IMG/VR virus record: IMGVR_UViG_2061766007_001281
Reading direction: 5' to 3' (one strand)
From: an uncultured virus (IMG/VR IMGVR_UViG_2061766007_001281)
Lineage: Duplodnaviria > Heunggongvirae > Uroviricota > Caudoviricetes
DNA length: 64,000 bases
In this document: piece after piece, positions 1-55,991 of the stretch
Layout: each line of letters starts with the position of its first letter
Position numbering within the stretch: the first letter of the stretch is position 1
Notes under the pieces: generated by a model
Told to the model about the DNA's origin: nothing
The model's database searches: none
Seen by the model: the letters and a program-made list of their open reading frames with translations, nothing else
Translations under genes and position numbers: made by a program

Positions 1-1
1 A

Positions 2-17
2 CAGCCGTAAACGGCTG
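2..17 (-). other. Short hairpin downstream of the VR2 target gene
   Basis: CAGCCG-TAAA-CGGCTG, 6-bp stem with 4-nt loop, at the window edge. Confidence 0.45.
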
Positions 18-29
18 ATTATGCCTTCC

Positions 30-575
30 TCAGAGAAAGACATAATCAGCCCAGATGTCAATGAACTGCTTGCCGCAGTAAATTGCCAGCTCTCTTGATT
101 TCAAAGCAAGGCGAGCCGAGATGACCGAGCCCGAGCTCGCCCAAGCGTTGAACGAGCGCGCATAAGCGAGGCCGCAAGCNNNNNNNNNNTCCATCTTGTC
201 AACTTCTTCTTTGGTATAGCCATAGAAGTATGGGTAATAGCGATATTCGCTGGTGGCGAAAGTGGGCTGCCAACCTTCATTGAGCGCAGCAGTTATGATC
301 CGGAGCTTGGTATAAGCCACCAGGTCTTTCATAGCAGGGTGAACTTGCAGTTCTTTGTACTCGTCAATGAGCTGTTCGTAGAACTCACCTTTCTTTGCGG
401 ACAACACATTTAACGCGTCCTCAAAGGTCTTGATACGCTCAGTGACAGGACGGTTGTCCTTGGCTGGTTTACATGTGTTTGTTCCATCCTCAAGGATGAG
501 AACTTCACCTACTTTCTCAATCTTTTTCCATACGGCTATTTTGCCTTCAGGAACTTCAATTTCAATTTTACTCAT
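30..575 (-). CDS. Small phage protein carrying a DGR variable repeat near its C-terminus (remote DGR target)
   Basis: 181-aa ORF; the segment ACGLAYARSFNAWASSGSVISARLAL is encoded by DNA that matches the TR at 56140-56217 except at TR adenines. Confidence 0.88.
   Translation of the reverse strand: MSKIEIEVPEGKIAVWKKIEKVGEVLILEDGTNTCKPAKDNRPVTERIKTFEDALNVLSAKKGEFYEQLIDEYKELQVHPAMKDLVAYTKLRIITAALNEGWQPTFATSEYRYYPYFYGYTKEEVDKMXXXXACGLAYARSFNAWASSGSVISARLALKSRELAIYCGKQFIDIWADYVFL
102..179 (-). repeat. DGR variable repeat VR2 (visible part; 5' part lies in an N gap)
   Basis: 78 nt align without gaps to 56140-56217; 15 mismatches, all at TR A positions. Confidence 0.93.
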
Positions 576-909
576 CGTTATTGTTATTTGGTGTTGGTTC
601 TTTTATTCCAAGCATATTGCGATAGAATTTGCAGAATTCATGATTCTTTTTGTACCACTCCTCTCTTGTATAGATTTTGCTATAATCCTCAGACTGGTCA
701 TAACACTCATCAACACGGCAGTACAAAGGACGTGTCTCATAGATGGAGCAGAGGTTGTCGGAAGAAAGATATTTGCACTCATCGCTGTCTTTCTTAGCCA
801 GCGCCGCAATCTCAGGTATGATACTGAGACCGACCAGCTTACAACATGCTCCGCATCGTTGGCACTTAAATTGAGGTGCGTTATCCGAAACTTTTTCTTG
901 CATCGTCAT
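568..909 (-). CDS. YkgJ-like cysteine-cluster (Zn/Fe-S binding) protein
   Basis: CQRCGACC...CKYL...CSIYETRPLYCR motif; start codon uncertain. Confidence 0.8.
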   Translation of the reverse strand: MTMQEKVSDNAPQFKCQRCGACCKLVGLSIIPEIAALAKKDSDECKYLSSDNLCSIYETRPLYCRVDECYDQSEDYSKIYTREEWYKKNHEFCKFYRNMLGIKEPTPNNNNDE

Positions 910-1163
910 AATTGTCAAACAACTCACATCCCCACAATCTTGCTCGTCCATCATCAATAGTAAGTCTCCCATACATACTTTCAACATCAGAAACTTCCGC
1001 TAACGCATTATACCATNNNNNNNNNNNNNNNNCCACAAGCAAGTAATTGTGCCTTACTACTGCTACCTTGTGATTGATGCCCTTCTGTCCATATATTATA
1101 CTTTGCCATATCTCTCTTGCATTAACATCCGACCAGACCTCAACCCACTTCTTGTCTGGGCAG

Positions 1164-1727
1164 TCACATTTCAACTGTCTTTGATATTATGTCTTTCCAG
1201 AACAAAGTATCATATATAAAAGGCATGAATTCCAGGAACGGAACTATCTCGGGAAATAATGTCTCTATAGCCTGCTTATCCCTCAGGTACATGATTTCCT
1301 CAAAGCGTCTGTTCGCCATTCTTTCTTCGTTGGATTTCGCCCTTTCCATTGCATTATCCAAACCGCATAGTGCCAGATAATAGGTTGAAGATATCTCAAC
1401 AGGTCGCGTAACCGGTTTGATGCCTCTATGAAGGCCCCAGATGTTATAATATACAACCTCACCGTTTTCCTTTTTATAAAAGACCTGAAGGTTATTGACA
1501 AGGCTCAGATTCTTCTGTTCTTCATCGGTCGGAATTGCTATCGGAGTATACTTTTCAAGGATTTCATTATACAGCTTCTTCTGCTGAAGAACCAACTCAT
1601 CTTTGAAAGGCCGTAAATGTCTCCCTATTATTTCATAGGACGCTTTTCTTGCACTCTCCATAGTTACGTAAACCTGGCGCTGAACATCAGATGCTGGTGC
1701 TGCGCATTCTTTCTTTTCCATTTCCAT
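1164..1727 (-). CDS. Hypothetical protein
   Basis: 187-aa ORF in a tightly packed leftward operon. Confidence 0.65.
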   Translation of the reverse strand: MEMEKKECAAPASDVQRQVYVTMESARKASYEIIGRHLRPFKDELVLQQKKLYNEILEKYTPIAIPTDEEQKNLSLVNNLQVFYKKENGEVVYYNIWGLHRGIKPVTRPVEISSTYYLALCGLDNAMERAKSNEERMANRRFEEIMYLRDKQAIETLFPEIVPFLEFMPFIYDTLFWKDIISKTVEM

Positions 1728-1931
1728 ATCTCAATCTTTTTAGTTAGTGTATTCCCCAAAAAACAAGTATTAAAGATTGATATTGGCTTTATCCCAAATC
1801 TTTGTGGCTGCATCGGCACAATCTTTGGCAATCTCAACAATAGTCACATCTTCCTCAAATTCCCACTCTTTGATTAATTCCAATACCATCTTCATTGATG
1901 CGTCAAGGATAAATTCTTCTTTTGTCATATC

Positions 1932-2362
1932 TCACTCTTTAATGATTATCACCTTTACCTTATCGTTTTTGGATAGTTGCGCCTCTAACTCAATCCAAGG
2001 GTAAGTATGCAATTTGTCACTCATTGTATTTCTTACTGCTACAACCTTTCCTTCAATCGCATCCTTCATCATCTGCTCTTTTTGCCATTGTGCGCCAAGT
2101 TGTGCGTACTTGCTTACAATATCGTCTATACCTCTGCGAACGAAATCATCCACATCGCCATCTGCCTCCATCTGTTCAACAACACATCTCTCCAAATCCT
2201 CGCTTGCAGGCTCTTGCCTATTGTACTCCGTGATGATAAACTGATAATAATCTTCCATAGCCTTGCGTAGCCTTGAAGCATNNNNNNNNNNNNNNNNNNN
2301 NNNNNATAGTACATGCCATCAGCAAGTTTCTTCATCCTATCTAATTTCTCTTTGTCGCTCAT
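1932..2362 (-). CDS. Hypothetical protein (joined across an N gap)
   Basis: ATG at 2362 follows the GGAGTGAGAT junction motif; frame resumes after the gap as ORF 1932-2258. Confidence 0.55.
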
Positions 2363-2682
2363 ATCTCACTCCTTTTAGGTTTATAAAATACTATTAATCC
2401 ATCATAATAGTAATTACCACTGGCATATTTAGCATAGTAAACAAACTGATATTTCTCTGCGTCAAACAAAGATATTGTCAAATCTATTGCCAAATCTTTG
2501 GGCTTCTTGTCTGCAAATAACCCTAAATCATAATGTTCTGTCGCTATCTTCCAACCATTCTCTAATAATGTTGGTGCAACCGTTTCTCGATACCAAGCTT
2601 TGCCCCCACCATCGTGACACACATATTCTTGTGGGCATTCTCGTTTCTTATATGTCTTGTAACTTATAATGTCAATTTTCAT
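2359..2682 (-). CDS. Hypothetical protein
   Basis: 107-aa ORF whose stop overlaps the next start. Confidence 0.65.
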   Translation of the reverse strand: MKIDIISYKTYKKRECPQEYVCHDGGGKAWYRETVAPTLLENGWKIATEHYDLGLFADKKPKDLAIDLTISLFDAEKYQFVYYAKYASGNYYYDGLIVFYKPKRSEI

Positions 2683-2685
2683 ATC

Positions 2686-2838
2686 TCACTCCTTTTCGTC
2701 ATAATTTGTCTGTTGACAGAAAATGGCTTTACGGGATAGTAAATCATTCTCTTTTGCCTTTTTGATATGGTTGTCAAACTTGTCATCCGGAACGAGTTTC
2801 TTAGCCCTTGATTTTTGGATTGCATCTTGGTAGTCCAT
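2686..2838 (-). CDS. Small hypothetical protein (50 aa) directly downstream of the pentamer array
   Basis: Translated by hand as MDYQDAIQKSRAKKLVPDDKFDNHIKKAKENDLLSRKAIFCQQTNYDEKE*. Confidence 0.5.
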   Translation of the reverse strand: MDYQDAIQKSRAKKLVPDDKFDNHIKKAKENDLLSRKAIFCQQTNYDEKE

Positions 2839-2848
2839 AAATAATAAA

Positions 2849-3078
2849 ACAATGCTGTGCTATACTAAACTTTACTTCTCAACACTCCGCTGGGCCATAC
2901 AGCGCCAGGCTTCACCAAATTGGGATATTACTTTGCTTTGCCAAACCGAACCACAATAGAGTTGACTTAACTCTGCTGTTCTTCGCATTACTCTGCCGTA
3001 CATAAATTGGATATAACCGTGCCGGACTCTACTCCTCTTTGCTTTACTGGGCTTAACAACACTCTTGCCTGCTCCACT
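2849..3078 (-). ncRNA. Putative guide-RNA array: three blocks of (RGY-NN)n pentamers with conserved 13-nt linkers
   Basis: 42 in-register triplets at period 5; 39 have a central G and 31 are RGY; linkers TATATCCAATTTA and AATATCCCAATTT; no ORF in the track; begins right after the stop of the RAMP-like gene. Confidence 0.75.
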
Positions 3079-3657
3079 TCAACTTATTTCTTCTACAGCA
3101 TATCGGCCATAACATTGCCTGTATGTTCCTATACCATGTCTCAGGCCGGCGTTTACCATAGCCAACCATACCTCACTCTTGTTTAACTGCGTTTCGTCAA
3201 AATGCAGTTCTCCTTCAAGAGACCACTCAGGAATTATCATTCTTGCAGTAACAACCTTTGCTTTCATAATGCCGACTGGACGTATGTCAACATAGGTGTC
3301 GCTATTGTTTTGCCAGAGTTCTTCAGGAGTACATCCGTTCGCCTCAAACTTCAGCACGCCATCGTTAAAGACAAAGACACTCCTCTGAAACTTGGTGCCA
3401 AGTTTATTTTCTTTAGCCCCAGCTTCAAAACTTTTGGCGATCATATTAGCTGGGAGATAATACTGGCCTTTGCTGTTATAATAACAGCTCGCTAAAAACT
3501 TCAAATGGAAAATTTCATTCTGGTCTTCATCTGTTTTTGTTCTCTTGCTTGTCAATTCCTTAAGAGCTTTGCTATATTCGTTCATAGGATTGACTGTCTG
3601 AGGATTGTTGAGCATGAGAGGACATGTCCCTGTCATACGGAATCTAATACTTTTCAT
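3079..3657 (-). CDS. Stand-alone Cas7/Csm3-like RAMP-fold protein (putative RNA-guided effector)
   Basis: N-terminal strand IRFRMTGTCPLML, YYLPANMIAKSF (compare RAMP IPGSSxKG), C-terminal Gly loop GIGTYRQCYGRY; no cas1/cas2 or CRISPR array in the window. Confidence 0.7.
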   Translation of the reverse strand: MKSIRFRMTGTCPLMLNNPQTVNPMNEYSKALKELTSKRTKTDEDQNEIFHLKFLASCYYNSKGQYYLPANMIAKSFEAGAKENKLGTKFQRSVFVFNDGVLKFEANGCTPEELWQNNSDTYVDIRPVGIMKAKVVTARMIIPEWSLEGELHFDETQLNKSEVWLAMVNAGLRHGIGTYRQCYGRYAVEEIS

Positions 3658-3773
3658 ATTGATAGTTCGTTAAAATGTTTGTCAAGCAATTCCACTTTGT
3701 TCTTATCATCCAGCGTGCCACGTATGTATTGTACGTAATCATCAGCGTCTAAGCCCAGTTCTGCAAGCGTCAT
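3654..3773 (-). CDS. Small acidic protein (39 aa), translationally coupled to the RAMP-like gene
   Basis: MTLAELGLDADDYVQYIRGTLDDKNKVELLDKHFNELSI*; ATGA overlaps at both ends. Confidence 0.5.
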   Translation of the reverse strand: MTLAELGLDADDYVQYIRGTLDDKNKVELLDKHFNELSI

Positions 3774-4126
3774 TTTGTTTCTATATTTTGATGGTCCAGC
3801 TCAAATAAATGAAAGCAGTTCTCATGAACATTCACAAACTCCTCACGTGGAGGGAATATCTGTGCCACCTGCATGCTGTTCGGCATGAACTTGTAACTCA
3901 CCTCTTTGAGTTCGTAATAACCCAAAGTGTGTTTTGCTGTCACACTAAGATGCCATAAACCTTCTTCGTTGTTTACAACAATCACTTTCCCCTTATAGTC
4001 AAACACTCCTGTTGAGTACACTCCATACTCGTCAGTGCGTTCTTCCTCTCTAATCTTGAAAGGGAATTGTGGTGGTGTGGGCCGTCTATATTTGTTCAGT
4101 TCCTCTCTTGTCATTGGGTTGGTCAA
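3770..4126 (-). CDS. Phage hypothetical protein
   Basis: 118-aa ORF with WHLSV and VNVHENCFHLF segments. Confidence 0.65.
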   Translation of the reverse strand: MTNPMTREELNKYRRPTPPQFPFKIREEERTDEYGVYSTGVFDYKGKVIVVNNEEGLWHLSVTAKHTLGYYELKEVSYKFMPNSMQVAQIFPPREEFVNVHENCFHLFELDHQNIETK

Positions 4127-4304
4127 ATAAGCTGGGCTGGTAGGCCGGTGGGTTAGTAAATGCCATTATACGCTTAATCTCCTCGTCAACCTCTTTCTCC
4201 AGCTGACGGCTCTGTACCAACGCTGCTTGTGAGCGCGTCTTGAAGTACAGCTTCTGTTGTTCTCGCATGCGAGCAACAAGTGTGATAAATTCAGTTTCGC
4301 TCAT
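4086..4304 (-). CDS. Hypothetical protein
   Basis: 72-aa ORF in the operon. Confidence 0.6.
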   Translation of the reverse strand: MSETEFITLVARMREQQKLYFKTRSQAALVQSRQLEKEVDEEIKRIMAFTNPPAYQPSLFDQPNDKRGTEQI

Positions 4305-4306
4305 TG

Positions 4307-5080
4307 TTAGGGTTTATTCTTTCTACATAGCCCCCAAAAGCTGAAGCGTGGTTTGGAATACTTGGCTACTTCCTCCTGGGCTTTGTGTAACTTATCAAGA
4401 GCTTCTGCTAACCTCTGTTCAGAAGTCTTTGACAAATCGCTGTTCTTTTCCTCAAGGATCGCAATGTTAGTATCACGTAACTTGATGTCTTTCTCATATT
4501 TTTCCTTGAGTTCCTTGATGTCTTTCTCATATTTGTCAGCCAATGCAGTCTCAGCAGCTTTAACAGCTTCCTGCACCTTGCAGGCCCTTTTGTCATACGC
4601 CTGTTTTGACTCTTCCAGTTCATGCTTTTTGTTTTCCATGGTTTGGCGGTATTCATCTTCAATCTTGTTTCTCACACTGGAAACGACATCATCAAAGCCC
4701 CTGATTTCAGAAACAACAGCGTCCTCATAATATGATGCTCGCATATTAAGCATATTCTTAAGGTGCCTTTTGATTATTTCTGCGAGGTCACCTGTACCCT
4801 CTGGCTTGCTAAACATGAAATCCGGTGTACAATAGCTGCGACTAAGAAGATAACCGTGTGTGCTTTGCTCAACAAGTCTATAAGCATCCTTCAGTATTCC
4901 GGCTGCGGCAGAATCGTAGTCCAGTTGTGGCAGATAGTATCGGTTCCTAACAACCACATTAGAAGAATTGTCTTTAAGTTTTTCAACTTCTTTGGTCAAT
5001 TCTGATACTCTTGCTTCGGCTTTAGATTTAGCCTCACGCATCATGTCATACTCTGATAGTTCAATTTCAAGTTTTGCCAT
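4307..5080 (-). CDS. Coiled-coil hypothetical protein
   Basis: 257 aa, K/E-rich, with duplicated KYEKDIK. Confidence 0.7.
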   Translation of the reverse strand: MAKLEIELSEYDMMREAKSKAEARVSELTKEVEKLKDNSSNVVVRNRYYLPQLDYDSAAAGILKDAYRLVEQSTHGYLLSRSYCTPDFMFSKPEGTGDLAEIIKRHLKNMLNMRASYYEDAVVSEIRGFDDVVSSVRNKIEDEYRQTMENKKHELEESKQAYDKRACKVQEAVKAAETALADKYEKDIKELKEKYEKDIKLRDTNIAILEEKNSDLSKTSEQRLAEALDKLHKAQEEVAKYSKPRFSFWGLCRKNKP

Positions 5081-5082
5081 AA

Positions 5083-5649
5083 TTATTTCTGTTTTTTATA
5101 ATGTTCAATATAAAAGCTGGCAGGGATATGAATAGGAAGGTTTGCGTAGCTCCATGCGAGCAGGCATGCGTCACGACATTCCTGGTTTATTTTCTTAGGC
5201 AGGNNNNNNNNNNNNNTAATCTTACCATCACGTCCCATCCACATCTTCTTCAGGGGCTTTATCTTTTCAACCCTGTAACCGAAATAATCGGCAAACTCCT
5301 GTATGTGTCGCTGTGTCGCATGGCACATACCTACGCCATGACCTATTGCGGATGCGGAGCGTGGGCTTACATGCGTGTTGTCCAGATGCCAGTTGGTTGT
5401 GCTGTCGGAATCTTCAAGCACTACAACGCAATCAGTAACCGTGAAGTCTGAGCTGTTAAGGGTGCTTGGTGTATGTTTGGCAAACACCAATGATTCTGCC
5501 AGGTCAACAAAAGACATTGCCTGCACCTTCGTGAAACATTTGAGTTTCAAATCCAGTACAGCAAAGCCGCTTTTTTCAACGTCCGGATCAATGCCGATGA
5601 TAAAACGTGGTTTATCCATAATCATTTGCGGTTTACAGGTGCGGTCCAC
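5083..5649 (-). CDS. RuvC-like Holliday junction resolvase/endonuclease
   Basis: IIGIDP, VVLED and ECRDACLLA RNase H-fold acidic motifs. Confidence 0.7.
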   Translation of the reverse strand: MDRTCKPQMIMDKPRFIIGIDPDVEKSGFAVLDLKLKCFTKVQAMSFVDLAESLVFAKHTPSTLNSSDFTVTDCVVVLEDSDSTTNWHLDNTHVSPRSASAIGHGVGMCHATQRHIQEFADYFGYRVEKIKPLKKMWMGRDGKIXXXXXLPKKINQECRDACLLAWSYANLPIHIPASFYIEHYKKQK

Positions 5650-5694
5650 TGGCTGTCATGGTAGAACACGTCAAGACCGCAGCTGGTGGCTATG

Positions 5695-5961
5695 TCANNN
5701 NNNNNNNNNNNNNNNNNNNNNNNNNNNNNNNNNNNAGTCAGTACACATATAGATGGCGTCACACTCCAGGAGCATCTGTATATCCACTTTCATGTGCTTG
5801 CTCCAGTGTACGTCATAGTCCAGTTTATTCTCCAGAGGGTTGACAACCTCATACCAGGGCATGGTATGTGCGATGAAGTCAATTATCTCAGCCGCATAAG
5901 CGCGGCGCTCCTCAGCTTCACGTCCTGTGATGGGTAGGCTGATATAAATCTTCTGTTTCAT
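5695..5961 (-). CDS. DUF4406-like (nucleoside deoxyribosyltransferase-like) protein; 3' end lies in a gap
   Basis: KIYISLPITG...VVNP...DIQMLLECDAIYM. Confidence 0.75.
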   Translation of the reverse strand: MKQKIYISLPITGREAEERRAYAAEIIDFIAHTMPWYEVVNPLENKLDYDVHWSKHMKVDIQMLLECDAIYMCTDXXXXXXXXXXXXX

Positions 5962-6335
5962 ATATCTTGTTGTTTCTTATTCTGTATCAAATGGTAGTAC
6001 TTGTCAAGGTTGACATCATACATGTGTCGCTCAGGCACGATGCAGTATGTCCCATATCCTGAAAGGCAAGTGCTGAGACAGTTGCATAGATCCACGGAGT
6101 TGATACGTCCGGTGCGAGCTGACTTAACGGTTATCTTGTAGTCTGTTGAATGGTTGGAGCCACATATCCACACGGTGCCGTCATCCGATACACGTATGTC
6201 GGCATACCGCTTGCGCTCATAGTCAACACGTAACAGACGCATGGCTGCTGCGTTGAGTGAGCAGTATCCGTGATACACACGCAACAGAGGCGCGGTACGC
6301 GGTACTTCCTTGGATATGCGCTGCATGTTCATCAT
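5958..6335 (-). CDS. Hypothetical protein
   Basis: 125-aa ORF overlapping both neighbours by ATGA. Confidence 0.6.
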   Translation of the reverse strand: MMNMQRISKEVPRTAPLLRVYHGYCSLNAAAMRLLRVDYERKRYADIRVSDDGTVWICGSNHSTDYKITVKSARTGRINSVDLCNCLSTCLSGYGTYCIVPERHMYDVNLDKYYHLIQNKKQQDI

Positions 6336-15252: not shown

Positions 15253-18200
15253 ATGGATAAAAAGTATATGCTCGTTCTGCCTGACGGCAAAAGCCGTACT
15301 TACAGCGCAGATGAGTTTGCCAGCCCTAACATACAGCAGTGGCTGGAGAAGACGCCGAGTTCCGAGTATGCCGTCTATGAGCAGACTGCCGTAGGTGACA
15401 ATGACGAGGAGCAGGAAGGTGACGTGTACAATATCCGTCTTGTTAAGGATAACAAGGCAAAGGACCGCCAGTACACGTCCGCCGACTGGCATAATGAGAA
15501 CGTACAGAACTGGGTGAAACAACATCCCGAAGCGGAGGTGTCACGCCTGCGCCAGTATGACTACTGGGGTGAGCGTGCCAAATCACAGCAGGGTGACATG
15601 GATGAGTTTGACCGTGCCAACGGCGGATTTATGGCCGAGTATGAGGCACGTAAAGCCGAGCTGGATGATGAGACCACACCACAGGACCGCAGGGATAAAC
15701 TCAATGAGTTCATTGAGACCAACCGCCAGCGTTATGACGAGCTGACCGCACAACGTCAGGCACAGCAGGCTGCCTATGACAATAATCCGTCTGTCATGGC
15801 AGAGCGTGAGGAGTACCGTAACGGTACCATTGACGCTATCAAGAAACAGATGGCCGAGAACGAGGCACGCTGGGATGAGCTGGGCAAGCNNNNNNNNNNN
15901 NNNNNNNNNNNNNNNNNNNNNNNNNNNNNNNNNNNNTCTGTCTGCCAATCCGCAGATGGAAGCATCCGGCGCTGACACCTGGGTTCGTGAGCAGCTGACA
16001 AAGAACTATACCGGTAACGCAGAGGATGAGGCCAACTACAAAGCCGCCAACCAACTGCTGGATGAGTCCGTCAAGTTATACGGCTCCACACAGAAAGGTG
16101 ACTTTGAGGGGTTGTCATGGTCCGAGAAGGTGGCCAAAGGCGTGCAGTCTTTCGGTAAGGCTGCCAAAGACCGTATCACAGACCGTGAGTTCTGGGAGAG
16201 TACCGTTGATCCGACAGCCAACGGTCATGCACTTTATAACCTGCACTCCAAGGTGACGGACCTTATCGGCAGCTATCNNNNNNNNNNNNNNNNNNNNNNN
16301 NNNNNNNNNNNNNNNNNNNNNNNNNNNGAAACTCAGCGACAGCGAGAAAGCGTTGCTGGAGGCATATATGCGTAACGCTCAGGCGATGGATGACAACTCC
16401 GACACACACTGGACCTATACAGCAGGCGGCACGTTCACCGACAGCATGAAGTTCATGGCTGAGATGATGCTGGGCAGCGGCGCTACCGGTACTGCCATGA
16501 AGGGTGCGTCCAACGGTATGCTCAAATGGTTTGCCAAACGTGCAGGACAGGCCACGACCAAGGCAGGACGCGCAGCTATCAAGGGAGCAGGTAAGTTCCT
16601 GGTCAGTGACACACGTGCGCTGGTACGTGGTGCCATACAGACCGCCGCCGCACCGTCCACCTATGCCAACATAGCCGGTAAGATGTCCGAGATAAACGAG
16701 GCAGGACAGCTCAACACCTTCATGGAGAGTGTGGCTGACGGCCTCTTTGATTCATATATTGAGAACGCATCGGAGTTCGGACTGGGTNNNNNNNNNNNNN
16801 NNNNNNNNNNNNNNNNNNNNNNNNNNNNNNNNNNNNNNNNNNNNNNNNNNNNNNNCGTGCCGGTATCCAAAGCGGTGTTGAGGAATGGGGTGAGGAGGTC
16901 AACGGCGCATATATACGCTCACTGGCCGCACTCATATCAGGCGGTAAGATAGGTGACGAAAAGGAATGGGATAACTTCTGGACCAAGGATAACCAGCTTG
17001 TGCTGCTTGCCAGCTTTGCACCTACCATCGGTGGCGGTAAAGCCATATCAGAGGCACAGCGTAAGCACCTGTCTAATCAGATGCACAAGAAAAGTGCGGA
17101 GGTACATGAGATGCTGACCGCCAACGGATATAGCAACGAGGCAGCTAACGCATTCGTATCTGCTGTACGTGGTGACACACCCAATGACCTTATCACCAAC
17201 GCATCACCTTACCTGCAGGAGTTCTTCCGTCAGGATCATGACGTGAACGATGTACGTCTGGTACTGGATTATATCAGCACCACAGCCAGGGCGCTGGAAG
17301 CCGATTCACGTAACGCACGTGACAACAGCGACAACCGCACGCTGGAACGTGACAAGATAATGACGAGCATGGCAAACCATAACGAGTTTACCATGCAGCG
17401 CTCATTACCTGACAGCGATTATACGGTAGAGAGTGTGCGCCGAATAGAGCAGGGTGACAAGACCGGTTATATAGTAGGCGGTGACGAGCAGGGCTGGGCC
17501 GTCAATTATGAGGACGGCACGGTGGGCATACTCAGCGAGCAGCAGATTGAGGAAGGTGTGAACGCAGGTACAGCCGTTGATAGCGGCTGGATGACTGCCG
17601 ATGACTTCNNNNNNNNNNNNNNNNNNNNNNNNNNNNNNNNNNNNNNNNNTATGGAGAGTGAGCAGCGTACCAACATGGCACAGCTCACACAGGCACTGCG
17701 TCCCGGTACCACCATCAACATAGGCACTACCGAAGCACCGCAGGACGGAATGGTAGCGAGCCTTAACGCAGACGGCGCAATCATAGAAGGTCCTGAAGGG
17801 TTCCGTCAGTACACATGGGAGGAGCTGGCACGTATGATGGATATGGAGTACCAGCCAAAGACCGATGCAGAGCTGGCTGATGATGAGGCCGCACGTCTGG
17901 ACCGTTTCGCTGACGCACGCGCACAGATGGATGAGACCGCTGCCAAGGGTTTTGCATCCATACAGCGTGACGGTACCACGTATAACATAACTGCCGCATT
18001 GGACTGGCAGGACCGTGAGGACGGACAGCAGATGCATGTCTTTGCTACCGATGAGCAGGGTGACATGACGGAGTTGTGGCTGAACACCGATGAGGTGGCA
18101 CAGGTGCTGGCTGAGGGTGACGTAGCGATGCAGCGTGAGGCCGAGCAGCGTGTGACCGAGAAAACCGAGGAGGAGCAGCCCCATGACATGAACCATGACT

Positions 18201-21200
18201 TCCGCGGTAATCCCCTGCCTATGACACCTGAAGGTGAGGTAGATGAAAAAGCCCTTTGGAACAATGATCCGGAGGCGTGGGCCAAGTGGAATGACGAGCA
18301 GAAAGAAGATAACGGTGCAGACAGCATTGATTATATCAACACCGCCATAGCCAAGATACAGGAGGATGTGGTGGCGCTGACCGCACAGCGTAAGAGCGAG
18401 CTGGACTTCACCAAACGTAACGCCATTGACGCACAGCTGACGGAGATGGCAGGACGCGCCGCTACGTTACGTGGTATCATTGACGGATATAACCAGCCGA
18501 GTGACAACGCTGTCATACAGCGTATCAACGACTGGACCAGGAAGCTGGGTATAACGATAAACTCCTACGTATCCGTTGAGGAGATACCTGACGAGCGTGT
18601 GCGTAAGGCATTGCAGGGCGGACAGGTTCATACGGCATGGTATGATCCAAAAACCGATTCGGTCAATTTCTTCATACCTAACATAGCCGATACCAGGATG
18701 GTGGACAGCGCCGTCATACATGAGGTGGTGGCACATCAGGGTTTACGCCGTCTGCTGGGTAAGGAGTTTGACACGTTATGTGACCGCGTGTGGGCTGACC
18801 TGATGGAGGATAAGACCAAGGACCAGTACCTGCGTCTTGTCACCAGCACAGCACCCAAAGCCAGCGAGCAGCAGCGTCAGCGTATGGCCGCCGNNNNNNN
18901 NNNNNNNNNNNNNNNNNNNNNNNNNNNCCTCAACACCGAGGATTCACAGACCTTATGGCAAAAGCTGTGTGAGTTCGTCAAGGATATACTTTTACGTCTG
19001 GGTGTGGGCGGTGACATCACCGTGGATGATTTGCGTGAGCTGTTACAGGCCAGCATGTCCAGTTACGTTAAGCAGGCCAGCGAGCCGCAGTCCGTACTGG
19101 GTACCATACCTACCATTACCGATAAGCAGGGTAACGTGAAAGGTTATAACTGGGAGGCAGCTCCTGACGCAGAGACGGCGCTGGCCGGATTGCGTGAGGC
19201 AGGTTATGACGATAAGATAATACGTCAGTTCGCAGCTAACAGAGCCAAGAAACTGCGTGAGGATAAATCACGCCTGGAGAAACGTAACCCCGAAACCATT
19301 GAGGAGCAGAAAGCCATCAATGACAAGTTGGATACCAACACCAAGGCACACTTGCTTTGGAATAACATAGTATCGCTGCTCAATAAGGCAGAGAGCGCGC
19401 AGGAGAAACGCCGTAAGGAGGTTATCAACACCGACACCACAGGACTGCCCGGCATCACCGAGCGATTCAACGCCAGCAGCCGTATTAAGGGTATAGCCAC
19501 TACACGTACACTGGCAGACGGCCGTATCATACAAGGCCATTATGAGCTGGTGAGAAGCGGTGCGGTAACTCCGTCACATAACCCTGAGACGTTTGCACCG
19601 ACCGAGGGCTATCCTACCAATGAGAACGGCAGCTCCATCAACGACCGTGACTATGAGCATGACGAGGCCGCACAGCAGTCTGTACGTCAGAAAGCAGGTG
19701 TGTACGACCAGCGCGCTTATCAGGAGCCTGTTATCGTCAGCCGTGACGGTGTGGTGCTGTCCGGTAATGACCGTACCATGGCCGGTATGCTCGCCGCTGA
19801 TAACGGTACCGACACCCAGTATGTGGAAAGTCTCATCAAGGACGCACCTATGTACGGATTCACATCCGACCAGGTAAAGGAGTTTAACCATCCGCGTCTG
19901 ATATTCGTGCTGGATGAAGATATTCCGTACACCACTGAGACCATGGCGCTGTTCAACATGAGCGAGCGTAAGACACAGAACCGTACCGAGCAGATGGTGA
20001 AAAGCGGTAAGACCGTCAAGGATACCACATTCACCAAACTGGCTGATGTGGTGTCACGGTTTGACAACACGTCAGACATGTACCGCGACCAGACAGCCGT
20101 TGCCGAGCTTATGAAGATACTCATGGCGGACGGTGTGCTGAACCAGCAGGATATTGAGCAGTTCATTGATAACGGCCTGTTATCACGTACCGGACAGGAT
20201 TACATAGAGTCTCTTATCATGGGATACCTGTTCAACGGACGTGACACCACCGTGCGCCGTCTGATGGCGGAGGGTATGGGTAACGTGCGCCGTTCCATCG
20301 TTGGCTCACTGGCCGCACTGACCGCCAACCGCACACTGGGTGAATACTCGCTCCAGGACATCATGGAGGATGCAATCGCAATCTGTTATGAGGCACATAA
20401 GGGATTCGGCGGTAACGTAGGTGACTATCTGAGACAAAGAAACCTCTTTGAGAGTGATAATACCGAAAGTTATTTGTATCTTGCAAAGTGGTTTGCCATT
20501 TACCTGAACAGCGGTTCGCTGGAGGTACGTGCCGTGCTTGACATATATAACCGGTCCTATGCTGACAGCGCAGGGACCGAGGATGTGTTCGGTGGCCGTA
20601 CAGCTCAGGACGCTATCAGGGATATAACAGCATACATACAAAACAAATATAACGATGAAATCCAAGGAAGAATTGCTGAGGAAAGCAATACAGCAGACCA
20701 ACGAGGCCAGCTTGAAGGCAGCCCTGAAGACAGGACTGGTGACCAAACAGGAGCTGGAGGGACTGAGCAAACAAGCCCAGTACGAGACGGTAATGCGCAG
20801 GATGGCGCAGCTCTAAGTCCTACCGACCGCGAGTGGGCCGCCGTCAAACTCATAGAGGCCGGTGCCGATGCGCGCCTGCCTGAGTTGATGAGTGATGAGG
20901 AAATCGCCGAGTTCACCCATGAATATGAATACTGGGAGCAGTTCAATGACGAGCTGGGCCAGTTATATACCGACCTGGACGGTGACTTGAAATCTACTGA
21001 CAAGGCCATAAAGACCGCCGCACAGCGTAGGATAGACAATCAGCAGGCTTTAGTCATACGTAAGTTCAAGCCCATTGAGGATATGGTATGGGGCCTCATG
21101 GTCAAGTATAATCTGACTGAGGAGGAATTTACAGAGGAGACACAGGAAAACACCGCAGATGACATCGTAACCGATAAGCTGGAGGACCAGCAGTATGAGG

Positions 21201-24200
21201 AGGGTGCCAGCGAGAAAGAGATTCAGGCAACCAAGTTCACACAGGATGAGTGGGAGCAGTTCGTATATGGCGGTTCGTACATAGAATATAAGAGCGAGCG
21301 TACCGGTGAGATACTGGAACCGGTGATGATTGATGATTCGCACTTCCCCATTTACGGCGATCATAGAGTAATCGTATGGCGCTGGAAGGACAGCATGTAC
21401 AAAGACCGCACCGAGGCTTCTGCTACATCGGATTATATCGTTAAGTACCTTAAAGCAAACAGGTTCAGGGCTACCGAGCAAAAATATAAAAAGAACCAAT
21501 ACGGATTCTGGACGGAGGAAGGTCATAACGGCTGTTCCAATCCGCTGNNNNNNNNNNNNNNNNNNNNNNNNNNNNNNNNGCTCATCATATATTGACTATT
21601 ATCGTGATGATGACGGCTTATGGAATGTCGGAGGTTGCGCAGAGTATGAGATTGGCGGTGGTACACTCAGCATGTCCAGACACCTGTTCAACACCAAGTC
21701 TGACGCGCTGCGCGCTGCTATTGAAGCGCTGGAGAAGTTCCGTAAGGAGCATCCGGGCAATCATTATAACCTCAAGGATGTTGACAACCTTATCAGTCAC
21801 TTAAAGACCAAGGTGCTGCCGTTGGCGATGAAGGAGGACGGTGAGATAGACGTTGTTCCTGACACGCTGGCCGTACAGGGTGAGCTGTTCACCTTTGACA
21901 GCCGTGCATCCAAGCAGGCCAAGAAAGCCAAGGCGAAGAAGGAGAAGAAGAAACCTGCCAAGAAAGCAGCACCTAAGAAGGTTGTGAGAGCCGAGGAGGA
22001 CGAGGACGAGACCGAACGTCCGACCGGTCGCCGTCAGCCCGATGAGACTATATCATTCCCTGACAGCGAGAACCGCATATACCTGTATGAGCAGGACGGC
22101 AAATGGGAGGCACGTATTGAGGTACATGCCGATAACGGTAACATGTCAGGCGGTGAGTCAGAGCCGTCCGCATATCCGTATAACAGCCGTGAGGATGCGA
22201 TACGTCATGCCTTAGACTATGCAGAGTGGTACGCCACCAACATAGCAGGTAAGACCGGTATCGGTCATGAAGGTATAGACAAGTTCGTGGACCAGGTACG
22301 TCTGACACAGATGGAAAGCCCTGCTCCACAACCAGCCGCACCTGCCTACGGTTCACAGAACACCATCATTACAGCCGATAAGTATGAGGAGCTGAAACGT
22401 AAGATGCGTGAAAAGCTCAACAATCTTAATGCTGGCTTTGATCCGGAGGTGTTCTATATCGGTGCGCAGATGGCTACCTTCCATGTGGAAGCTGGCGCAC
22501 GTAAGTTCGTGGATTTCGCTAAGCGTATGATTGAAGACCTGGGTGACGCGATACGTCCCTATCTGAAAGCCATATACAACGGAGCGCGTGACCTGCCTGG
22601 CATGGAGCAGTTCAAAGCCGAGATGGACAGCGCAGCCGAGGTGGATGTCATTGACGTGAACGCCATTACGCTGGAGGAGCCAGCTGCCGAGGAGCCGACC
22701 GAGGAAACTCCAGAGGAGGTGACCGAGGAGGAGAGCGAGACGGAGGATGAGCTGGCCGTACATGAAGGTGACCTTGTGGTACTGAAGAAGAAACCGCAGG
22801 GTTTTGACGGTGCGTTGAAGGTCGTGGGCGTGAACAGAGACGGCACATTCAACCTGGAATACAACCCGACCGGGTTCCTGCCTGTCACTATGATGAACGT
22901 GGATGCGGATGATTTCATTCCGTTTGTACGTAATCACCGTGAGGATATATCACAGCAGCGCAAAGATATAGAGACACAGCAGCCGCAGGAGGCCGCACCA
23001 GCAGCCGAGCAGCCTGCTGCCAAGACCGTGGGTGAGATTGGCACATATACACATACCAAGACCGGAAGGGAGATGTCTATCGTGCGTCTCACCGGTGACC
23101 GTCTGAGTGCTGATGAGTTTAAGGAGCTGAAAGCACGTGCCAAGGAGATGGGCGGTTATTATTCGTCATACGGCGGTGCCAAGGGTTTCCTGTTTGACAC
23201 CGTTGAGGATGCAACCAAATTCAACAACTTAGAATATGAAACAGAACAGACAGATGAGCAAACAGCAACAGATACAGCAGCTATTGTCAGCGAAGCAGCA
23301 TCTGTTGCAGAGCAAGCAGAAGCTGTTGCGCAAGCTGAGGAGCCAGCAGACACCCAGCGAGCAGCCGAACTCATAACACAGATTGACGAGCAGCTACAGA
23401 AGGTCAACGACCATCTGGCATTGCTGGGCTTCTATCAGGCAGACAAGTCCGATCCGTCCAAGTTCCATGAGAGCTACGGATTCATGAAGACCGCCGAGAA
23501 GAAAGCAGTTAAGGATGCGGACCGACTGGCCAAGGAGCTTGCAAAAGACCTGGGTATTGAGGTAGGTAAGAAACAACTTGCACAGGCCAACATAGCACCT
23601 GCAGGTGGTGACATCACATTCCGTCTGCCGCTGATGGACGGCTTTGAGCTGTACGTGAACATAGACATAGCTCCTGTTGACTATACGACCAGTTACGGAT
23701 ACAGCGATGACCTGCGTTTAGGTGGTGTGATGGGTGACGCTATGGCTATCATGTACCGTATTGAGAACCCGACCGCCAGCGGTCAGAGCCGTTATGTGTC
23801 CAGCAACATGTATGAGTCCATCGGTGTCATGTATAATGACTTCCTGAAGGATATACGCCGTGCTGCCAAGGCATATCTGCCTGAGCAGGTGGAAACACCG
23901 GCAGAGGATAACACACAAATTGCTCAGACACAGCAAGAAAAACCTGCAAAATCTGGTAAATCCAAGAAAAAAGAAGTAAATTCGCAGAGTAGCGGTGACG
24001 CACTGATGGGTGACCTCTTTGCAGACATCTATCATGTAGAGGAGGAGCAGCAGGAAGATGAGCCGGCACCGCAGGATGCAGCAGTCAACGCTCCTGTCAA
24101 GGAGGTTGTGACCGAGCTTAACGGTTACAAGATTGGTGACCGCGTGCTGTACACTGATTACACTGGAAAGACACAGCAGGCAACCATATATGAGTTTGAC

Positions 24201-27200
24201 GGTGGCCGTCCGGTACTGGATACCGGTTTTGCACCTGTCATGTATGAGCTTGTTGAATGGGATAATATTAAACCGATAGATAATGGACTTGAAGGAAATG
24301 ATGCAGTACGCACCGAAGGACTGCCAGCCGACAATCCTGGATATGGAGAAGGAGAAGGAGGCGGCACTGAGGGCGTACCTGAAACGGACCGGCAAGAAAC
24401 TGGAGGAGCTGACCGAGGAGGAGAAAGCGGAAGCCAGTCAGGTGAGCAGCCTGGACGATCCGTGCGACATGTACCGCGACTAAGCGGACAGAACAAACGT
24501 AACAACCACGTCTCAAAAGGCGAGGCTGTCTATCCTAAGTCACCTGCGGCACGATTCAAAGCCAACATAGCCGCTATCCGTCTGCTGAAAGAACTGCAAA
24601 ACGAAGGTAAGCAGGCCACCAAGGAGCAGATGGCAGTATTGCGCCAGTTCACAGGCTGGGGCGGACTGGGTGGATATTTCAACAATTCTTATTCCGAAGA
24701 TTACCGCGAGTTGCGTTCACTGCTCACTGATGAGGAGTTTGACGCAGCACAGCTGTCCATCAACACCGCTTACTACACTCCCACTGAGATTATAGATACC
24801 TTATGGGACGTAGCAGGTCGTCTGGGCTTTACCGGTGGTAAGATACTGGAGGGTTCGGCAGGTATAGGTNNNNNNNNNNNNNNNNNNNNNNNNNNNNNNN
24901 NNNCGAGCCAGATAACCGCCGTGGAGCTGGATGACATCACAGGCGGCATACTGGAACAGCTCTATCCTGACGCTCAGGTCTTTATCAGAGGATTCCAGGA
25001 TGTGGATATTGACAACGCATCGGTGGACCTCGCCATCACCAATGTTCCGTTTGGTGAGAACATGAAGATATATGACGCCAAGGAGAAGGACCTGACACGT
25101 CTGTTCGGAAGTAAGATTCATGATTTCTGCATAGCCAAGAACATACGTAAGCTACGTCAGGGCGGTATCGGCATATTCATATCGTCACGTGGCACGTTGG
25201 ACAGCTCCAGCCGTAAGCTGCGTCAGTGGATCATAAACGAGGGAAGCTGTGATGTCATCGGCGCTTTCCGTCTTAACAACGAGACATTCGTGGGTACCGG
25301 TGCTACTGCCGACATCATCGTGGTTCGTAAGCGTGTAAATAACCAGGTATCACCCGATGCCATTGACGTGACCGCCACCGAGGTGGTACGCTCCGAGGAG
25401 TATGAGACCGGCGAGACAGAGTATAACCGTAAGGAACACCGTTTTGAGCCTATCATGGGACGTGCCACGATGGAGATGAACACCTACTTCACCCAACATC
25501 CCGAAATGATGGGTGGTGAGATGGCGTTCGGCTTTGAGAAAGGCAACAGCTACCGTGGTGGCAGTGCTGCTCTCTATCCGTCAGATAAGATAGACCAATC
25601 CAAGCGTCTGAAGAAATGGGTGTCACAGATGAAGGAGTATGAACCGATGGAGGTTACGGCTCCTACGATGACAGCCGAGCTGGAAAGTACCGAGGGTGTC
25701 AAGGAAGGTCAGCTCATCGTCAACAGCAAAGGTGAGATTTGCCAGTCACGCAGAGGTAAGGCCGTGCCTGTTCCTGGCTTGAACAGCAACAAGGTAAAAG
25801 GCAAGTACACCAAAGCACAGGTGCTGGCCGATTATGACGCGCTGAAAGCCGCCATAAAAGAGACTTTGGACTATCAGCTGAAGAATGAGTCAGACGAGGG
25901 ATTACAGCCTCTCCTAAAGAAGCTGAACCGCGTCTATGACGATTTTGTGAAGAAGTACGGATACCTGACGCGTAACGCATCAATATCATTCCTCAAGAAT
26001 GACGTTGAGTACAGCGCTACCGAGCAGGTGGAGATATACAAGGAGAAGAAAGGTATTGACGGCAAGGTGACGGCTGATGTCAAGAAAGCACAGCTGTTCT
26101 TTGTACGTCAGCTCAACGCACCTGTCATTCCTACACCTGAGACGGTACAGAATGGTGTCATCGTTTCCATGAACCAGTTTGGCCGTATCAACATTCCGTT
26201 CATAGCACAGGCTATGAAACAGAGTGAGGATAAGGTGAAGGAAGATATACTTGCCGCAGGTCTGGGCTTTGAAGATCCAGCGACCGGTGAGGTGACTATC
26301 GAGTATGAGTACCTGTCAGGTAACGTGCGTGAGAAGCTGGAATATGCTAACGAGCATAACACAGACGGACGATATAACAACAACGTCAAGGCCCTGCAAG
26401 GCGTGATACCTGCCGACATACCGGCACATCTGATTGAGTTCTCGCTGGGTTCGGATTGGCTCCCTGTATCCCTTTATGTGGGATACGCACATGAGAAGTT
26501 CGGTGTCAATGACCGGTTCCAGCCTGTCAAGGTAGGCGGCTCATGGACACTCAAAGAGGACGGCATATATTATATTGACGGCCGTAACGAGCAGAACCGC
26601 AGCGCAGGTGTCACCAGTAACGCACTTAACATGACCGTCTATGGTCATGAGCTGATGATTGCCGCCATGAACAACAAGACGGTGGAGTTTGTGAAGACCG
26701 AGACCGTGGGCGGTGAGAAAGAGACACGCCGAGNNNNNNNNNNNNNNNNNNNNNNNNNNNNNNNNNNNNNNNGCACGTCAGAAGATGCAGGGCGATGAGG
26801 AGCTGGCTGCACATGTGTCAAAGATATACAATGACCTGTTCAACGCCATGGTCCCCAAGCAGATAAGGGATATATACGTACCTGAGCATTTCAACGGAAT
26901 GGCCAACGTACTTGCCAACGGCAAGCCGCTGTCACTGCGTCCCCATCAGGCACGTTCCGTGATACGCTCCACCACCGAGCCGGTGATACTGGCTCATGAG
27001 GTGGGAACCGGCAAGACCTTCACACTCATAACAGCAGCGATGGAGATGCGCCGTCTGGGTACCGCCAAGAAACCTATGATTGTGGTGCAGAACGCGACAC
27101 TGGGCCAGTTCGTGGCAAGTGCCAAGGAGCTGTATCCCAGTGCCAGGATACTGACCATATCCGAGCAGGACCGCACGGTAGAAGGCCGTGGCGCTTTCTA

Positions 27201-30200
27201 TGCCAAGATACGTTATAATGACTGGGACCTCATCATAGTACCGCAGTCTGTCTTTGAGATGATGCCTGACAGCGAGGAGCGCCGCCGTGCATTCATACAG
27301 AGTAAGATTGAGGAAAAGGAGTATATCCTGTCACAAGCGGACCAGACCGCCGACCAGAATGTCATACGCCGACTGAAACAGGAGATTGACGACCTGAAGT
27401 ATGAGTATGACACTGGTGAGAAGCCGCAGAAGGGTAAGAAGAAAGACTCCAAACGTCAGGCCGAGTCCATCAACAACACCAAGGTGAAGGCACAGCGTCA
27501 GTTGGATCGCCGTACTGATGACGTATCCAACTTTGATGAGATGGGTATTGACGCGCTGCTGGTTGATGAGGCACACGCATACAAACACCTGGGATTCGCC
27601 ACCACCATGCAGCGTGGCGTGAAAGGTGTGGATGCGTCAGGCAGCAAACGTGCCGCAGGTGTGTTTCTCAAGACACGTTCCATCTTTGACCGCGTGGGCT
27701 GGAAGAACGTGGTATTTGCTACCGGTACTCCCATAAGCAACACCGCAGCCGAGATATGGACGTTCATGAAGTATCTGCTGCCTGATGATTTCATGTGGAA
27801 GAACCACATCTACTACTTTGATGATTTCGTCCGTAACTTCGGTTCCATTCAGCAGAACCTGGAATTCACCACAAGCGGTAAGTTCAAGGAGACCACACGT
27901 TTCGCCGCTTATACCAACCTGCCCGAACTGGTACGTATATGGATGACAATCGCTGACGTGGTACTGACCAAGGAGGCGGTGGCCGGTGACGGTGAGACAC
28001 TCAATGACAAGGTGCCGCGTATGGAGGACTGGACCGATGATAAGGGCGTGAAACATGAGAACCAGGTACGTGACATATACCTGCCTCAGTCCGCATCACT
28101 CATCACCATCATGTCCGCTGTACGTGCCGAGCTGGAGCGTTTTGAGAACATGTCAGGTAAGGAGAAGCAGGAGAACAGCCATATACCGCTTGTGATGTTC
28201 GGAACGGCCAAAGCCGCCGCCATTGACACACGTCTGGTATCGGCCGAGTCACCTGACGAGCCGCAGAGCAAGACCAACCGTGCCGTGGAGGAGACGCTGA
28301 AAGCGCTGGAGGACAGCAAGCGTTACAAAGGCACGTGCGCGCTGTTCTGTGACATGTACCGCCGTTGGGATTATGAGGGTGGCCGCCGTGTGGAGGGCTT
28401 TAACGTCTTTGACGAGATAAGACGTAAGCTCATAGACAGGGGCGTGCCTGCCGACCAGATAATCATCATGGAGTCCGGCATGTCAACAGCCGCCAAGGAG
28501 AAGATATTTGCCAAGGTCAATAACGGTGATATACGTGTGATCATGGGTACCACCGCCACACTGGGTACTGGTGTCAACATACAGGAGCGTCTGTTCTTTG
28601 AGGCACACCTGGATGCACCAAACCGTCCTATGGATTACACACAGCGTATGGGCCGTATTCTGCGTCAGGGCAACTTGCACAAAGAATGGGGCATACCGGT
28701 ACGTGTGATACGTTTTGGCGTGGAGGATTCACTTGACGTGACCGCCTATCAGCGCCTGTCCACCAAGAGCAAGTTTATAAATTCCGTGATGGATAGCAAG
28801 CACCTGCTTGCCAACGGCATGGAGGACCGTGTGCTTGAGGAGGAGGAAGAAGGTGAGTTTGACAATCCTGTCGCCATCCTGTCAGGTAGCGAGTATGCGC
28901 TGCTCAAGACACAGGCCGAGCGTGAGCTGCGTAAGTTACAGAACAAAAAAGAACAGCACCGTCAGGACCAGATATACATTGAGAACAAACTGAAGAAAAA
29001 CAACACCCAGCTGTCACTGGCCGAGAGCAATCAGACCAAGTACCAGCAGGCACTGGATAACACAATCGCTGCATTCCCCGATGGTACGGTGAAGGAGATT
29101 ACCGTAGAGGGCGTGAAGTGTAAGGATGATAAGGCGGTGGCCGCTGCTGTCAAGGNNNNNNNNNNNNNNNNNNNNNNNNNNNNNNNNNNNAGCGCCATGA
29201 GGAGAAACGCACGTTTACCATGACCTTTGACGGTGTTAAGGTGAATGTGATTGTCACACTGGTCAGCTCATGGGGTTATGACTTCAACAAGGGTTCGTAC
29301 AACACCAAGGTACAGACACAGCTCCAGTTCGTATGTGACGAGTGCGGATTCACCGAGCCGGTGGATATGCCGGGCGGTTACACTGCCGCCAAGGATATTG
29401 TTGAGTACTTCAAGCTCAACATAGCCAACGGCAGCCGTATGAGACGTAACCTGGAACTGCTGTCAGAGCATATTGACCGTATCAACAAGGACAATGAGCT
29501 GATGCTGGAACGTAAGGGTAAGCCTTTTGCCGATGAGGATAAGCTGAAAGAGCAGACCAAGCTGGTAGAGGACCTGACCGAGAAGATGAAAGCGGAGATG
29601 GCAGCTAAGGAGGCCAAGTACGCCGAGGAGCTGAAAAACAGCACATCCAGCTTCGTGCTGCATACAGAGTTGTCTGATGATGACATTAACAGCGATGATG
29701 ACAGCGCTCCTGCCTATCAGACCGTCACCGGTAACGCCACACAGATATTGGATTACTATGAAAATCCTGATGGAAGATACTCATATATGAGTGAGGACGG
29801 TCTGGTATCGGCTGTGGAGATGAGTAACGTGCTTATGGATGATGAGCGTGTGCGCGACCTTGTTGACGAGTACCGCAGGCTGGATGTCATTGACCGTTCC
29901 GAGGGCAGACGTGACTTCACAGGCGGTGAGATGCAGGACCTTGTGGAGTTTGAGCTGTTGCCGCTGCTGCGTGAGATTGCAGAGCTGGAACAGCGTAACG
30001 AGGCCAGCATTGTTGAGGGTAACGTAAACACTGAGATATTCATATCCAACGCGCTTAAAGCCGTTCAGGGTATCAAACAGGAGAAAGCCACACCGCAGCA
30101 GTGGCTGGCTATGATCCAGAAACAGGGCGGACTGAAAGCCGGTGAAGATAAGTGGCTGGGCCTGAGCCAGTGGCTCCAGGGAAAGACCGCCAAGACACTC

Positions 30201-54623: not shown

Positions 54624-54642
54624 TCATTAAACAATTACGGAT

Positions 54643-55957: not shown

Positions 55958-55967
55958 CTTATTCAGG

Positions 55968-55991
55968 CCCGCGTCACTCAGGTGACGCGGG
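55968..55991 (+). other. GC-rich hairpin downstream of VR1 (DGR target-recognition hairpin candidate)
   Basis: CCCGCGTCAC-TCAG-GTGACGCGGG, perfect 10-bp stem with 4-nt loop. Confidence 0.7.

Follow-up and report, generated by a model that had tools for sequence, protein, structure and literature searches.

A probable second, remote target of a diversity-generating retroelement in the replication region of a temperate rumen phage

Can a single diversity-generating retroelement (DGR) of a phage rewrite, besides the tail gene at its side, a distant gene whose product is made together with the replication proteins? This question is raised by a stretch of 64,000 nt from an uncultured Caudoviricetes virus (IMG/VR record IMGVR_UViG_2061766007_001281; the whole stretch is referred to as the window), which carries a reverse transcriptase (RT) gene with its template repeat (TR) on the plus strand and, at its other end, a short minus-strand gene (30–575) containing an altered copy of the template. 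A preliminary description made from the bare sequence had claimed this gene as a second, remote DGR target on the strand opposite to the RT. The claim is upheld by the adenine-only pattern of the copy, by the conservation of the gene and by the same layout in related phages, and we consider it very probable that 30–575 (−) is a genuine second, remote target of the DGR of this phage. In the DGR mechanism as known from Bordetella phage BPP-1, an RNA of the TR is copied into cDNA, with errors made opposite adenines, and this cDNA replaces the variable repeat (VR) of the target gene at a 3’ boundary element. RTs of the DGR type carry the motifs [LIV]GxxxSQ and YxDD.

The reverse complement of positions 102–179 aligns to TR positions 56140–56217 without gaps over 78 nt, with 63 identical nucleotides and 15 mismatches. 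All mismatches are located at TR adenines (15 of 20) and none at the 58 other sites (24 C, 17 T, 17 G); our recalculation returned exactly the figures of the preliminary description. The probability that 15 random mismatches among 78 sites all fall on the 20 adenines is 3.5e-12. As a control, both strands of the 64-kb window were scanned for runs of ≥30 nt that match the TR region 56090–56240 with mismatches at one base type only. The adenine rule yielded a single run, 179–102, and the C-, G- and T-rules yielded none on either strand of the whole window. The codon changes present in this repeat, called VR2 in the following, lead from AAC to CGC, TTC, AGC, GGC and GTC. The visible part of VR2 (102–179, minus strand) is the only A-restricted match to the TR in the window. 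It may reach into the adjoining positions 180–189, which are masked (N) and beyond which the similarity to the TR ends, and the readable VR2 amounts to 78 nt (at most 88) out of a TR of about 116 nt.

The last three differences between VR2 and TR (TR positions 56211, 56212 and 56215) stand apart from the others, as their VR bases are identical in every relative VR inspected (LoVEphage, the phage G008 and the loci L003 and L028, with an analogous situation in the group of loci around L004). They probably represent a fixed boundary between TR and VR rather than random mutagenesis, and with these three set aside about 12 of 17 adenines are left as diversified. The 3’ part of VR2 comprises a G+C-rich stretch of 14 nt (109–122, minus strand) that is identical to TR 56197–56210, and directly after it, at 102–108, VR-specific bases occupy TR-adenine positions. 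The same VR 3’-end bases are present in both VR1 and VR2 of LoVEphage, in VR2 of G008, in L003 and in L028, and analogously in the L004 group. By position and pattern, 109–122 followed by 102–108 looks like the boundary between the initiation of mutagenic homing element and its counterpart (IMH/IMH*) and is a candidate for it, the homing function being inferred from this pattern.

The TR itself (56102–56217, plus strand) contains 27 adenines and reads in frame as LWLFGGNSNNGANCGLAYANSNNAWTNSNSNISARLTM, with a high share of AAC codons. Its 5’ limit was set from the VR of L003 and L029 and from VR1 of L037–L040, which align to 56102–56210. It is followed by a spacer (56218–56425, plus strand) without any Rfam family near its gathering score; the Rfam scan of 55900–56500 returned a chance miRNA row only. 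A short open reading frame (ORF) over the TR (56106–56306) has no match in PHROGs. The RT starts 209 nt downstream of the TR and is encoded by one ORF of 473 amino acids (aa) (56426–57847, plus strand; Pfam RVT_1, 2.5e-10; phrog_1423, 3e-48) with the motifs LGIRPSQ at residue 188 and YLDD at residue 220. Its relatives share 62–68% identity. The protein continues for about 170 residues past the RT domain, and the RT ORFs of the relatives comprise 479–508 aa. The local target upstream of the TR is a tail protein (54643–55957, plus strand; phrog_5302, 4.7e-9), represented in the window by the ORFs 54643–55914 and 55763–55957. VR1 forms the C-terminal part of this protein, is masked by 91 N (55809–55899) and is unreadable in the window. 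The C-termini of VR1 targets matched nothing in Pfam and nothing convincing in the PDB. Altogether the window contains 37 runs of N (1341 bases, 10–162 bases each), two of which coincide exactly with VR1 and with the 5’ edge of VR2.

The remote target gene (30–575, minus strand) encodes 181 aa and belongs to phrog_11581, a family of unknown function. The match has an E-value of 8e-38 and aligns residues 20–180 to positions 21–192 of the 200 profile positions; relatives reach 5e-47 to 3e-66. VR2 encodes residues ~129–158 and is followed by another 23 residues. No match of the protein was found among Pfam, NCBIfam or PDB sequences (best PDB profile E-value 0.19), and Pfam was likewise empty for 28 members of the family. 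The family is represented by 34 related viral loci in IMG/VR and by at least 6771 protein clusters at E ≤0.001 among 8000 candidates scored; none of the 120 clusters listed has a Pfam domain. In the family alignment a variable middle is located between conserved blocks. In the window the target is the last visible gene of a leftward operon with an excisionase-like helix-turn-helix protein, a replication-initiation protein, a Holliday-junction resolvase and a fragment of a nucleoside deoxyribosyltransferase, and a repressor and an integrase are transcribed divergently from this operon. Judged by this gene content, the phage is temperate, and the target gene lies in its early or middle, non-structural region. 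In all four annotated relatives (L004, L012, L022 and L029) the neighbors of the phrog_11581 gene are likewise of this kind, namely a replication-initiation protein or DnaD-like loader, RecT, helicase, junction resolvase and MazG. The early, non-structural location named in the preliminary description thus stands, with the target in the replication/recombination module here and in four out of four annotated relatives.

Pairing of a TR with a VR2 in related phages, a check put forward in the preliminary description, was found in LoVEphage, in G008 and in the L004 group, in each case with differences at adenines only. LoVEphage (MW660583.1, circular, 71,495 bp) has VR1 in its ‘tail collar fiber protein’ beside the RT cassette (112 nt; 13 of 26 adenines and no other site changed) and VR2 in QVQ57199.1, a homologue of the window protein, at about 15 kb from the TR (113 nt; 19 of 26 adenines, no other site). 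VR2 of G008, a phage with an RT 62% identical to that of the window, also spans 113 nt (12 of 26 adenines, no other site) and is separated from the TR by about 26 kb, on the opposite strand. The loci L004, L005, L006, L007 and L009 show the pattern over 76–120 nt with 9–16 adenines and no other base changed, at a distance of about 9.4 kb and again on the opposite strand. At L026, L031 and L032 the family member is itself the local target, with the TR 100–560 nt downstream (75–90 nt; 9–15 adenines, no other base). The scan covered 29 full-length loci, and in the remaining 21 the 10-kb flanks contained no TR. Taken by these repeat pairs, phrog_11581 serves both as a remote and as a local DGR target. 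The TR of the window gave no match to the target-bearing records G001–G005, and these phages carry a different TR, which was found by self-scan. A TR pattern scan of viral contigs yielded 29 loci, none of them on a contig with a target locus, and was not used as evidence. In the targets of L004, L012 and L022 the VR segment (residues ~129–174) is additionally similar to the final 50 positions of phrog_14959, whose members are proteins of about 2500 aa (E-values 7e-7 to 4e-9), and giant DGR targets of other Bacteroides phages may likewise end in such a VR cassette.

Regarding the activity of the system, near-identical target genes from IMG/VR have their differences concentrated in the VR. Those of L018 and L019 differ in 18 variable columns, all of them within columns 438–513 of 606, and among the target genes of L012, L013 and L015, 23 of 26 variable columns are within 412–493. 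DNA nearly identical to that of the window’s species was found in bovine and sheep gut sequencing runs. We compared contigs of four runs from four studies (X3, X4, X5 and X16) with positions 1–1016 of the window, and each of them gave a contig of the target gene; parts of 1–1016 lacked contig coverage in some of the runs, to which no meaning is attached. In X3 there were 13 differences over 110 nt in the VR2-bearing piece and 12 over 827 nt in the gene body and upstream region. The corresponding values were 8 over 177 nt and 13 over 731 nt in X4, 14 over 177 nt and 10 over 669 nt in X5, and 9 over 75 nt and 11 over 331 nt in X16. Nine variable positions were listed at 122–140, a list that omits positions near the ends of the pieces and to which some runs contribute rows mixed with contigs of the VR1/TR locus, and eight of the nine correspond to TR adenines. 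The preliminary description had suggested testing for variation restricted to TR-adenine positions at VR2, and in the contigs of other samples the variation follows the adenines at these eight positions of nine. The exact VR2 allele of the window had no match in viral_contigs or in metagenome_contigs, and the constant 3’ flank of VR2 had none in metagenome_contigs. Because other VR2 alleles are present in near-identical phages from four of four other samples, it is unlikely that VR2 is a fossil copy, and the target appears to be actively diversified.

Several observations weigh against the interpretation of 30–575 as a second target, or against the letters that represent its repeat in this contig. 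No Avd-like accessory protein was recognised in family scans with Pfam, PHROGs and NCBIfam. The ninth of the variable positions (128, in X5 only) corresponds to a TR thymine, and the contig comparison records differences between samples, not variation of this phage within a sample. G006 and G009, the two phages with the closest RTs (68% identity; both rated complete), carry TR and VR1 without a phrog_11581 gene, so the second target is not constant in the lineage. The remaining points concern the contig itself. At 178–189 the window has 12 letters and the contigs of all four other runs have 57, which makes VR2 of the window 45 nt (15 codons) shorter; the missing 45 nt are the 5’ third of the repeat, and at this place the closest relative, L003, carries TEDQKKELWLFGGSSNNESS, against four masked residues and an alanine in the window protein. 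In addition, record 8 of X3 contains a TR copy and, 237 letters away from it, a second copy, which is exactly the VR1–TR spacing of the window. This second copy is identical to window positions 104–175 in 72 of 72 letters, including 13 substituted adenine sites, and between the window and the VR2 contig of X3 itself there are 13 differences. The letters at 102–179 are a VR1 allele that exists in another sample, and the aligned letters 102–179 may not be the true VR2 of this phage. At VR1, finally, the frame of the tail protein differs before and after the run of N, since the upstream ORF ends at 55914 and the conserved tail starting with AYYGSLNKV ends at 55957; between the YG and AYYG motifs the relatives have 138 nt and the window 91 nt (47 nt less).

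A VR1 allele in the VR2 locus together with the loss of 45 nt leads to two explanations, a local assembly chimera or a conversion of VR2 by VR1. If the assembly is at fault, the gene is a real DGR target, but 102–179 was built from VR1-derived reads, with VR2 left gapped and VR1 damaged. Both the VR1-spaced copy of X3, in view of the different VR2 of the same run, and the length of 57 letters in four out of four runs argue for this, as does the window’s VR1 region, which is shorter than in the relatives and out of frame. The other runs of N keep long ORFs in frame, so masks seem to be length-preserving. Moreover, 5 of the 34 related IMG/VR loci (L028, L030, L033, L034 and L036) begin or end in or beside the VR, as was confirmed for L028, and assemblers evidently struggle there; contigs ending at a VR would be expected if hypervariation within samples breaks assemblies. 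As VR1 of the window is masked, however, an identity of VR1 and VR2 within the contig cannot be read, the window differs from the X3 VR1 at 176–179, and the frame of VR2 is intact across the deletion. We give the chimera somewhat less than an even chance. Real recombination, in which VR2 was overwritten from VR1 by gene conversion or aberrant homing and 45 nt were lost, leaving the target shortened but in frame, accounts for the same observations and for the open, in-frame ORF, and an adenine-free stretch of 19 nt common to VR2 and TR provides a possible 5’ crossover site. It seems somewhat unlikely, as the short form was found in none of the four other samples and all 27 aligned relatives that cover this part of the protein are longer there. 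What remains beside these two is a contig that is correct by some other, unrecognised cause. With either a chimera or a conversion the remote target would still stand, since it is established independently by the four other samples and by the relatives. A VR2 that was formerly a target and whose diversification ended in this lineage would agree with the truncated repeat of the contig and with the missing gene in G006 and G009. This is very improbable given that no non-adenine site of 58 differs, that all four near-identical phages have other alleles with changes concentrated at TR adenines, and that the RT is intact with its catalytic motifs. Nothing was found in favor of a similarity by chance or of an ordinary duplicated and diverged protein motif without connection to the retroelement, and this reading is refuted, to a vanishingly small remaining probability, by the above P value of 3.5e-12, the empty C-, G- and T-only control scans and the recurrence of the pattern in independent phages. 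In practical terms, the case is a warning that a TR/VR1/VR2 triplet can corrupt short-read assemblies.

A remote second target of this kind has precedents. The two-target layout was already published in 2021, when Benler et al. (Microbiome 9:78, PMC8008677) described for Quimbyvirus one TR with a tail-side VR1 and a distal VR2 on the opposite strand in a small non-structural protein. A distal second VR is described for four prophage species in a Nature paper of 2025, which through its reference list also equates LoVEphage with the Quimbyvirus phage. In Van Espen et al. (2021) the only element mentioned is the RT next to the tail collar fibre gene, and a study of cultured isolates (Gut Microbes 2025) describes large tail-related targets, with the second target unmentioned in the passages covered. 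The survey of Roux et al. (2021) could not, according to its passages on this point, detect remote targets, and such targets escape metagenome surveys.

With Quimbyvirus/LoVEphage the window shares one TR for two VRs, VR1 at the C-terminus of a protein of the tail-fibre region beside the RT, and a distal VR2 on the opposite strand. The VR2 proteins are homologous (35–36% identity, residues 46–179) and the TR DNA is 87–88% identical (56102–56217 versus MW660583.1 49398–49486). In contrast, window positions 1–6000 have no megablast match to LoVEphage, and within 54600–58300 the TR alone matches. The portal protein of the window matches three other Bacteroides phages (28–32% identity), with no LoVEphage record among the 3 hits. 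The RT is only 29.5% identical and consists of one 473-aa ORF here and of three pieces in LoVEphage, the latter in agreement with the frameshifted RT reported by Benler et al. 2021 (PMC8008677). LoVEphage stems from human gut and the phage of the window from bovine or sheep gut, and VR2 is 45 nt shorter in the window contig. The published VR2 context of Quimbyvirus is termed a ‘defence-related island’ (methyltransferases, nuclease, tRNA ligase), whereas the gene resides in a replication/recombination module here and in four relatives. Since DNA similarity is absent outside the TR, the portal is related to other phages and the RT is 29.5% identical, the window phage is not a LoVEphage. Between the two, the template is far better conserved (87–88% at the DNA level) than the RT (29.5% at the protein level) or the phage backbone. 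The prophages of the 2025 Nature paper resemble the window in having the second VR far from the RT cassette in temperate phages of Bacteroidota, a layout read there as part of a phage–host arms race; their VR is placed near counter-defence genes such as a DNA methyltransferase.

The system of BPP-1 (Mtd) has in common with the window the adenine-specific mutagenic retrohoming to a VR near the 3’ end of the gene and the RT motif type. It differs by a single local C-type lectin tail-fibre target and by Avd, whereas the window has a remote, non-structural target in addition to the local one, and neither an Avd nor a C-type lectin fold of the remote target was recognised. Multiple or remote targets are also known from cellular DGRs (Treponema, cyanobacteria), which are similar in that one TR serves several distant VRs but reside on bacterial chromosomes and act on surface or signalling proteins. 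What is added here is the same layout in a temperate rumen phage of Bacteroidota type, with a portal unrelated to that of LoVEphage and an RT 29.5% identical to its RT. Added are also a very large target family that is both a remote and a local DGR target and a consistent position in the replication/recombination module, which narrows the search for a partner of the protein.

Does the remote target share a fold with known DGR targets? AlphaFold models of the window protein (28 sequences) and of L003 (43 sequences) had mean pLDDT (predicted local distance difference test) values of 71 and 72, respectively, and in both the helical core was confident (blocks with pLDDT 80–95) and the VR segment below 50. 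Foldseek found nothing in the PDB at E ≤0.001. With VIA-align, the best Z values among 48,161 chains were 4.9 and 4.4, obtained for unrelated helical proteins, and no lectin was among the rows. BFVD returned uncharacterised phage proteins only and the ESM Atlas unnamed viral clusters only, and none of these searches yielded another convincing fold. The search for a C-type lectin fold relied on models with a weak VR segment, which proves nothing either way. When the VR2 family (43 sequences) was compared by hhalign with five C-termini of VR1 targets, only 37 columns aligned, corresponding to the TR-encoded segment, and the two targets of one TR thus have no detectable scaffold in common. According to Benler et al. 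2021 (PMC8008677), both Quimbyvirus targets contain C-type lectin domains; this assignment was not reproduced here for phrog_11581. It is a speculative and on the whole unlikely idea that phrog_11581 represents a DGR variable-protein scaffold of its own, distinct from C-type lectins, so that one TR cassette would be grafted into two unrelated scaffolds and the protein would act as a hypervariable intracellular adaptor of the replication module. If true, this adaptor, the family of which occurs in thousands of contigs of gut and rumen phages, would retune its binding to a host replication or defence factor upon a change of host, and DGRs would be tools for host-range adaptation inside the cell and not for adsorption alone.

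Coming back to the reading of 30–575 as a second, remote target, we propose that the RT (56426–57847) copies the TR RNA (56102–56217) into cDNA with misreading of adenines, and that this cDNA would replace the homologous VR in two genes, VR1 in the adjacent tail protein and VR2 in the phrog_11581 protein. The G+C-rich stretch in which both repeats end, followed by VR-specific bases, would mark the homing sites. In the remote target, about 12 codons of a segment of about 26 residues near the C-terminus would be rewritten, giving rise to a variable surface on an intracellular protein of the early or middle phase. The gene order suggests that the protein is synthesised in the infected cell along with the replication proteins. 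To judge from this context, the variable codons could provide a surface by which the protein binds a host factor that is not the same in all hosts, most likely a variable defence or replication-associated protein; the cytoplasmic binder of host or defence proteins supposed in the preliminary description is likewise a possibility drawn from context. A role in defence or counter-defence is favoured by the published authors (Benler et al. 2021, PMC8008677, and the 2025 Nature paper, in the parts covered). Because of the constant replication/recombination gene neighborhood, we regard a replication-associated partner of the host as an equal candidate to a defence partner. Phage DGRs are mostly known for tail fibres; a second hypervariable protein, produced within the cell, suggests an arms race that continues once the DNA has entered, an idea already in print.

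Around the target gene, the gene just upstream (568–987, minus strand) overlaps its start by 8 nt and encodes a protein of 139 aa with a CxxCxxCC motif and a match to PF03692 (8.5e-6; putative zinc- or iron-chelating). An imperfect inverted repeat of about 18 bp (12–50, minus strand) extends across the stop codon of the target. The DNA fold of 1–110 has −23 kcal/mol (z −4.64), and none of 200 shuffled sequences was as stable. It is possibly a terminator and not necessarily part of the DGR; the scan for consensus terminators did not report it, and it was not seen by eye in L003 or L028. A hairpin of 5 bp just after the VR (YCGKQF codons) was considered as a conserved DNA element and rejected, as the synonymous positions vary among relatives. 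An ORF of 137 aa directly 3’ of the RT (57860–58273, plus strand) has no family in Pfam, PHROGs or NCBIfam. A comparison of 58300–64000 with G008, G010, G011 and G012 gave two matches of 66–69% only and did not close the circle. The window further contains three giant ORFs, 17000–21595 (1531 aa), 21672–26798 (1708 aa) and 29220–36884 (2554 aa), of which 21672–26798 matches a DarB-like antirestriction family (4e-228) with a DNA methyltransferase region.

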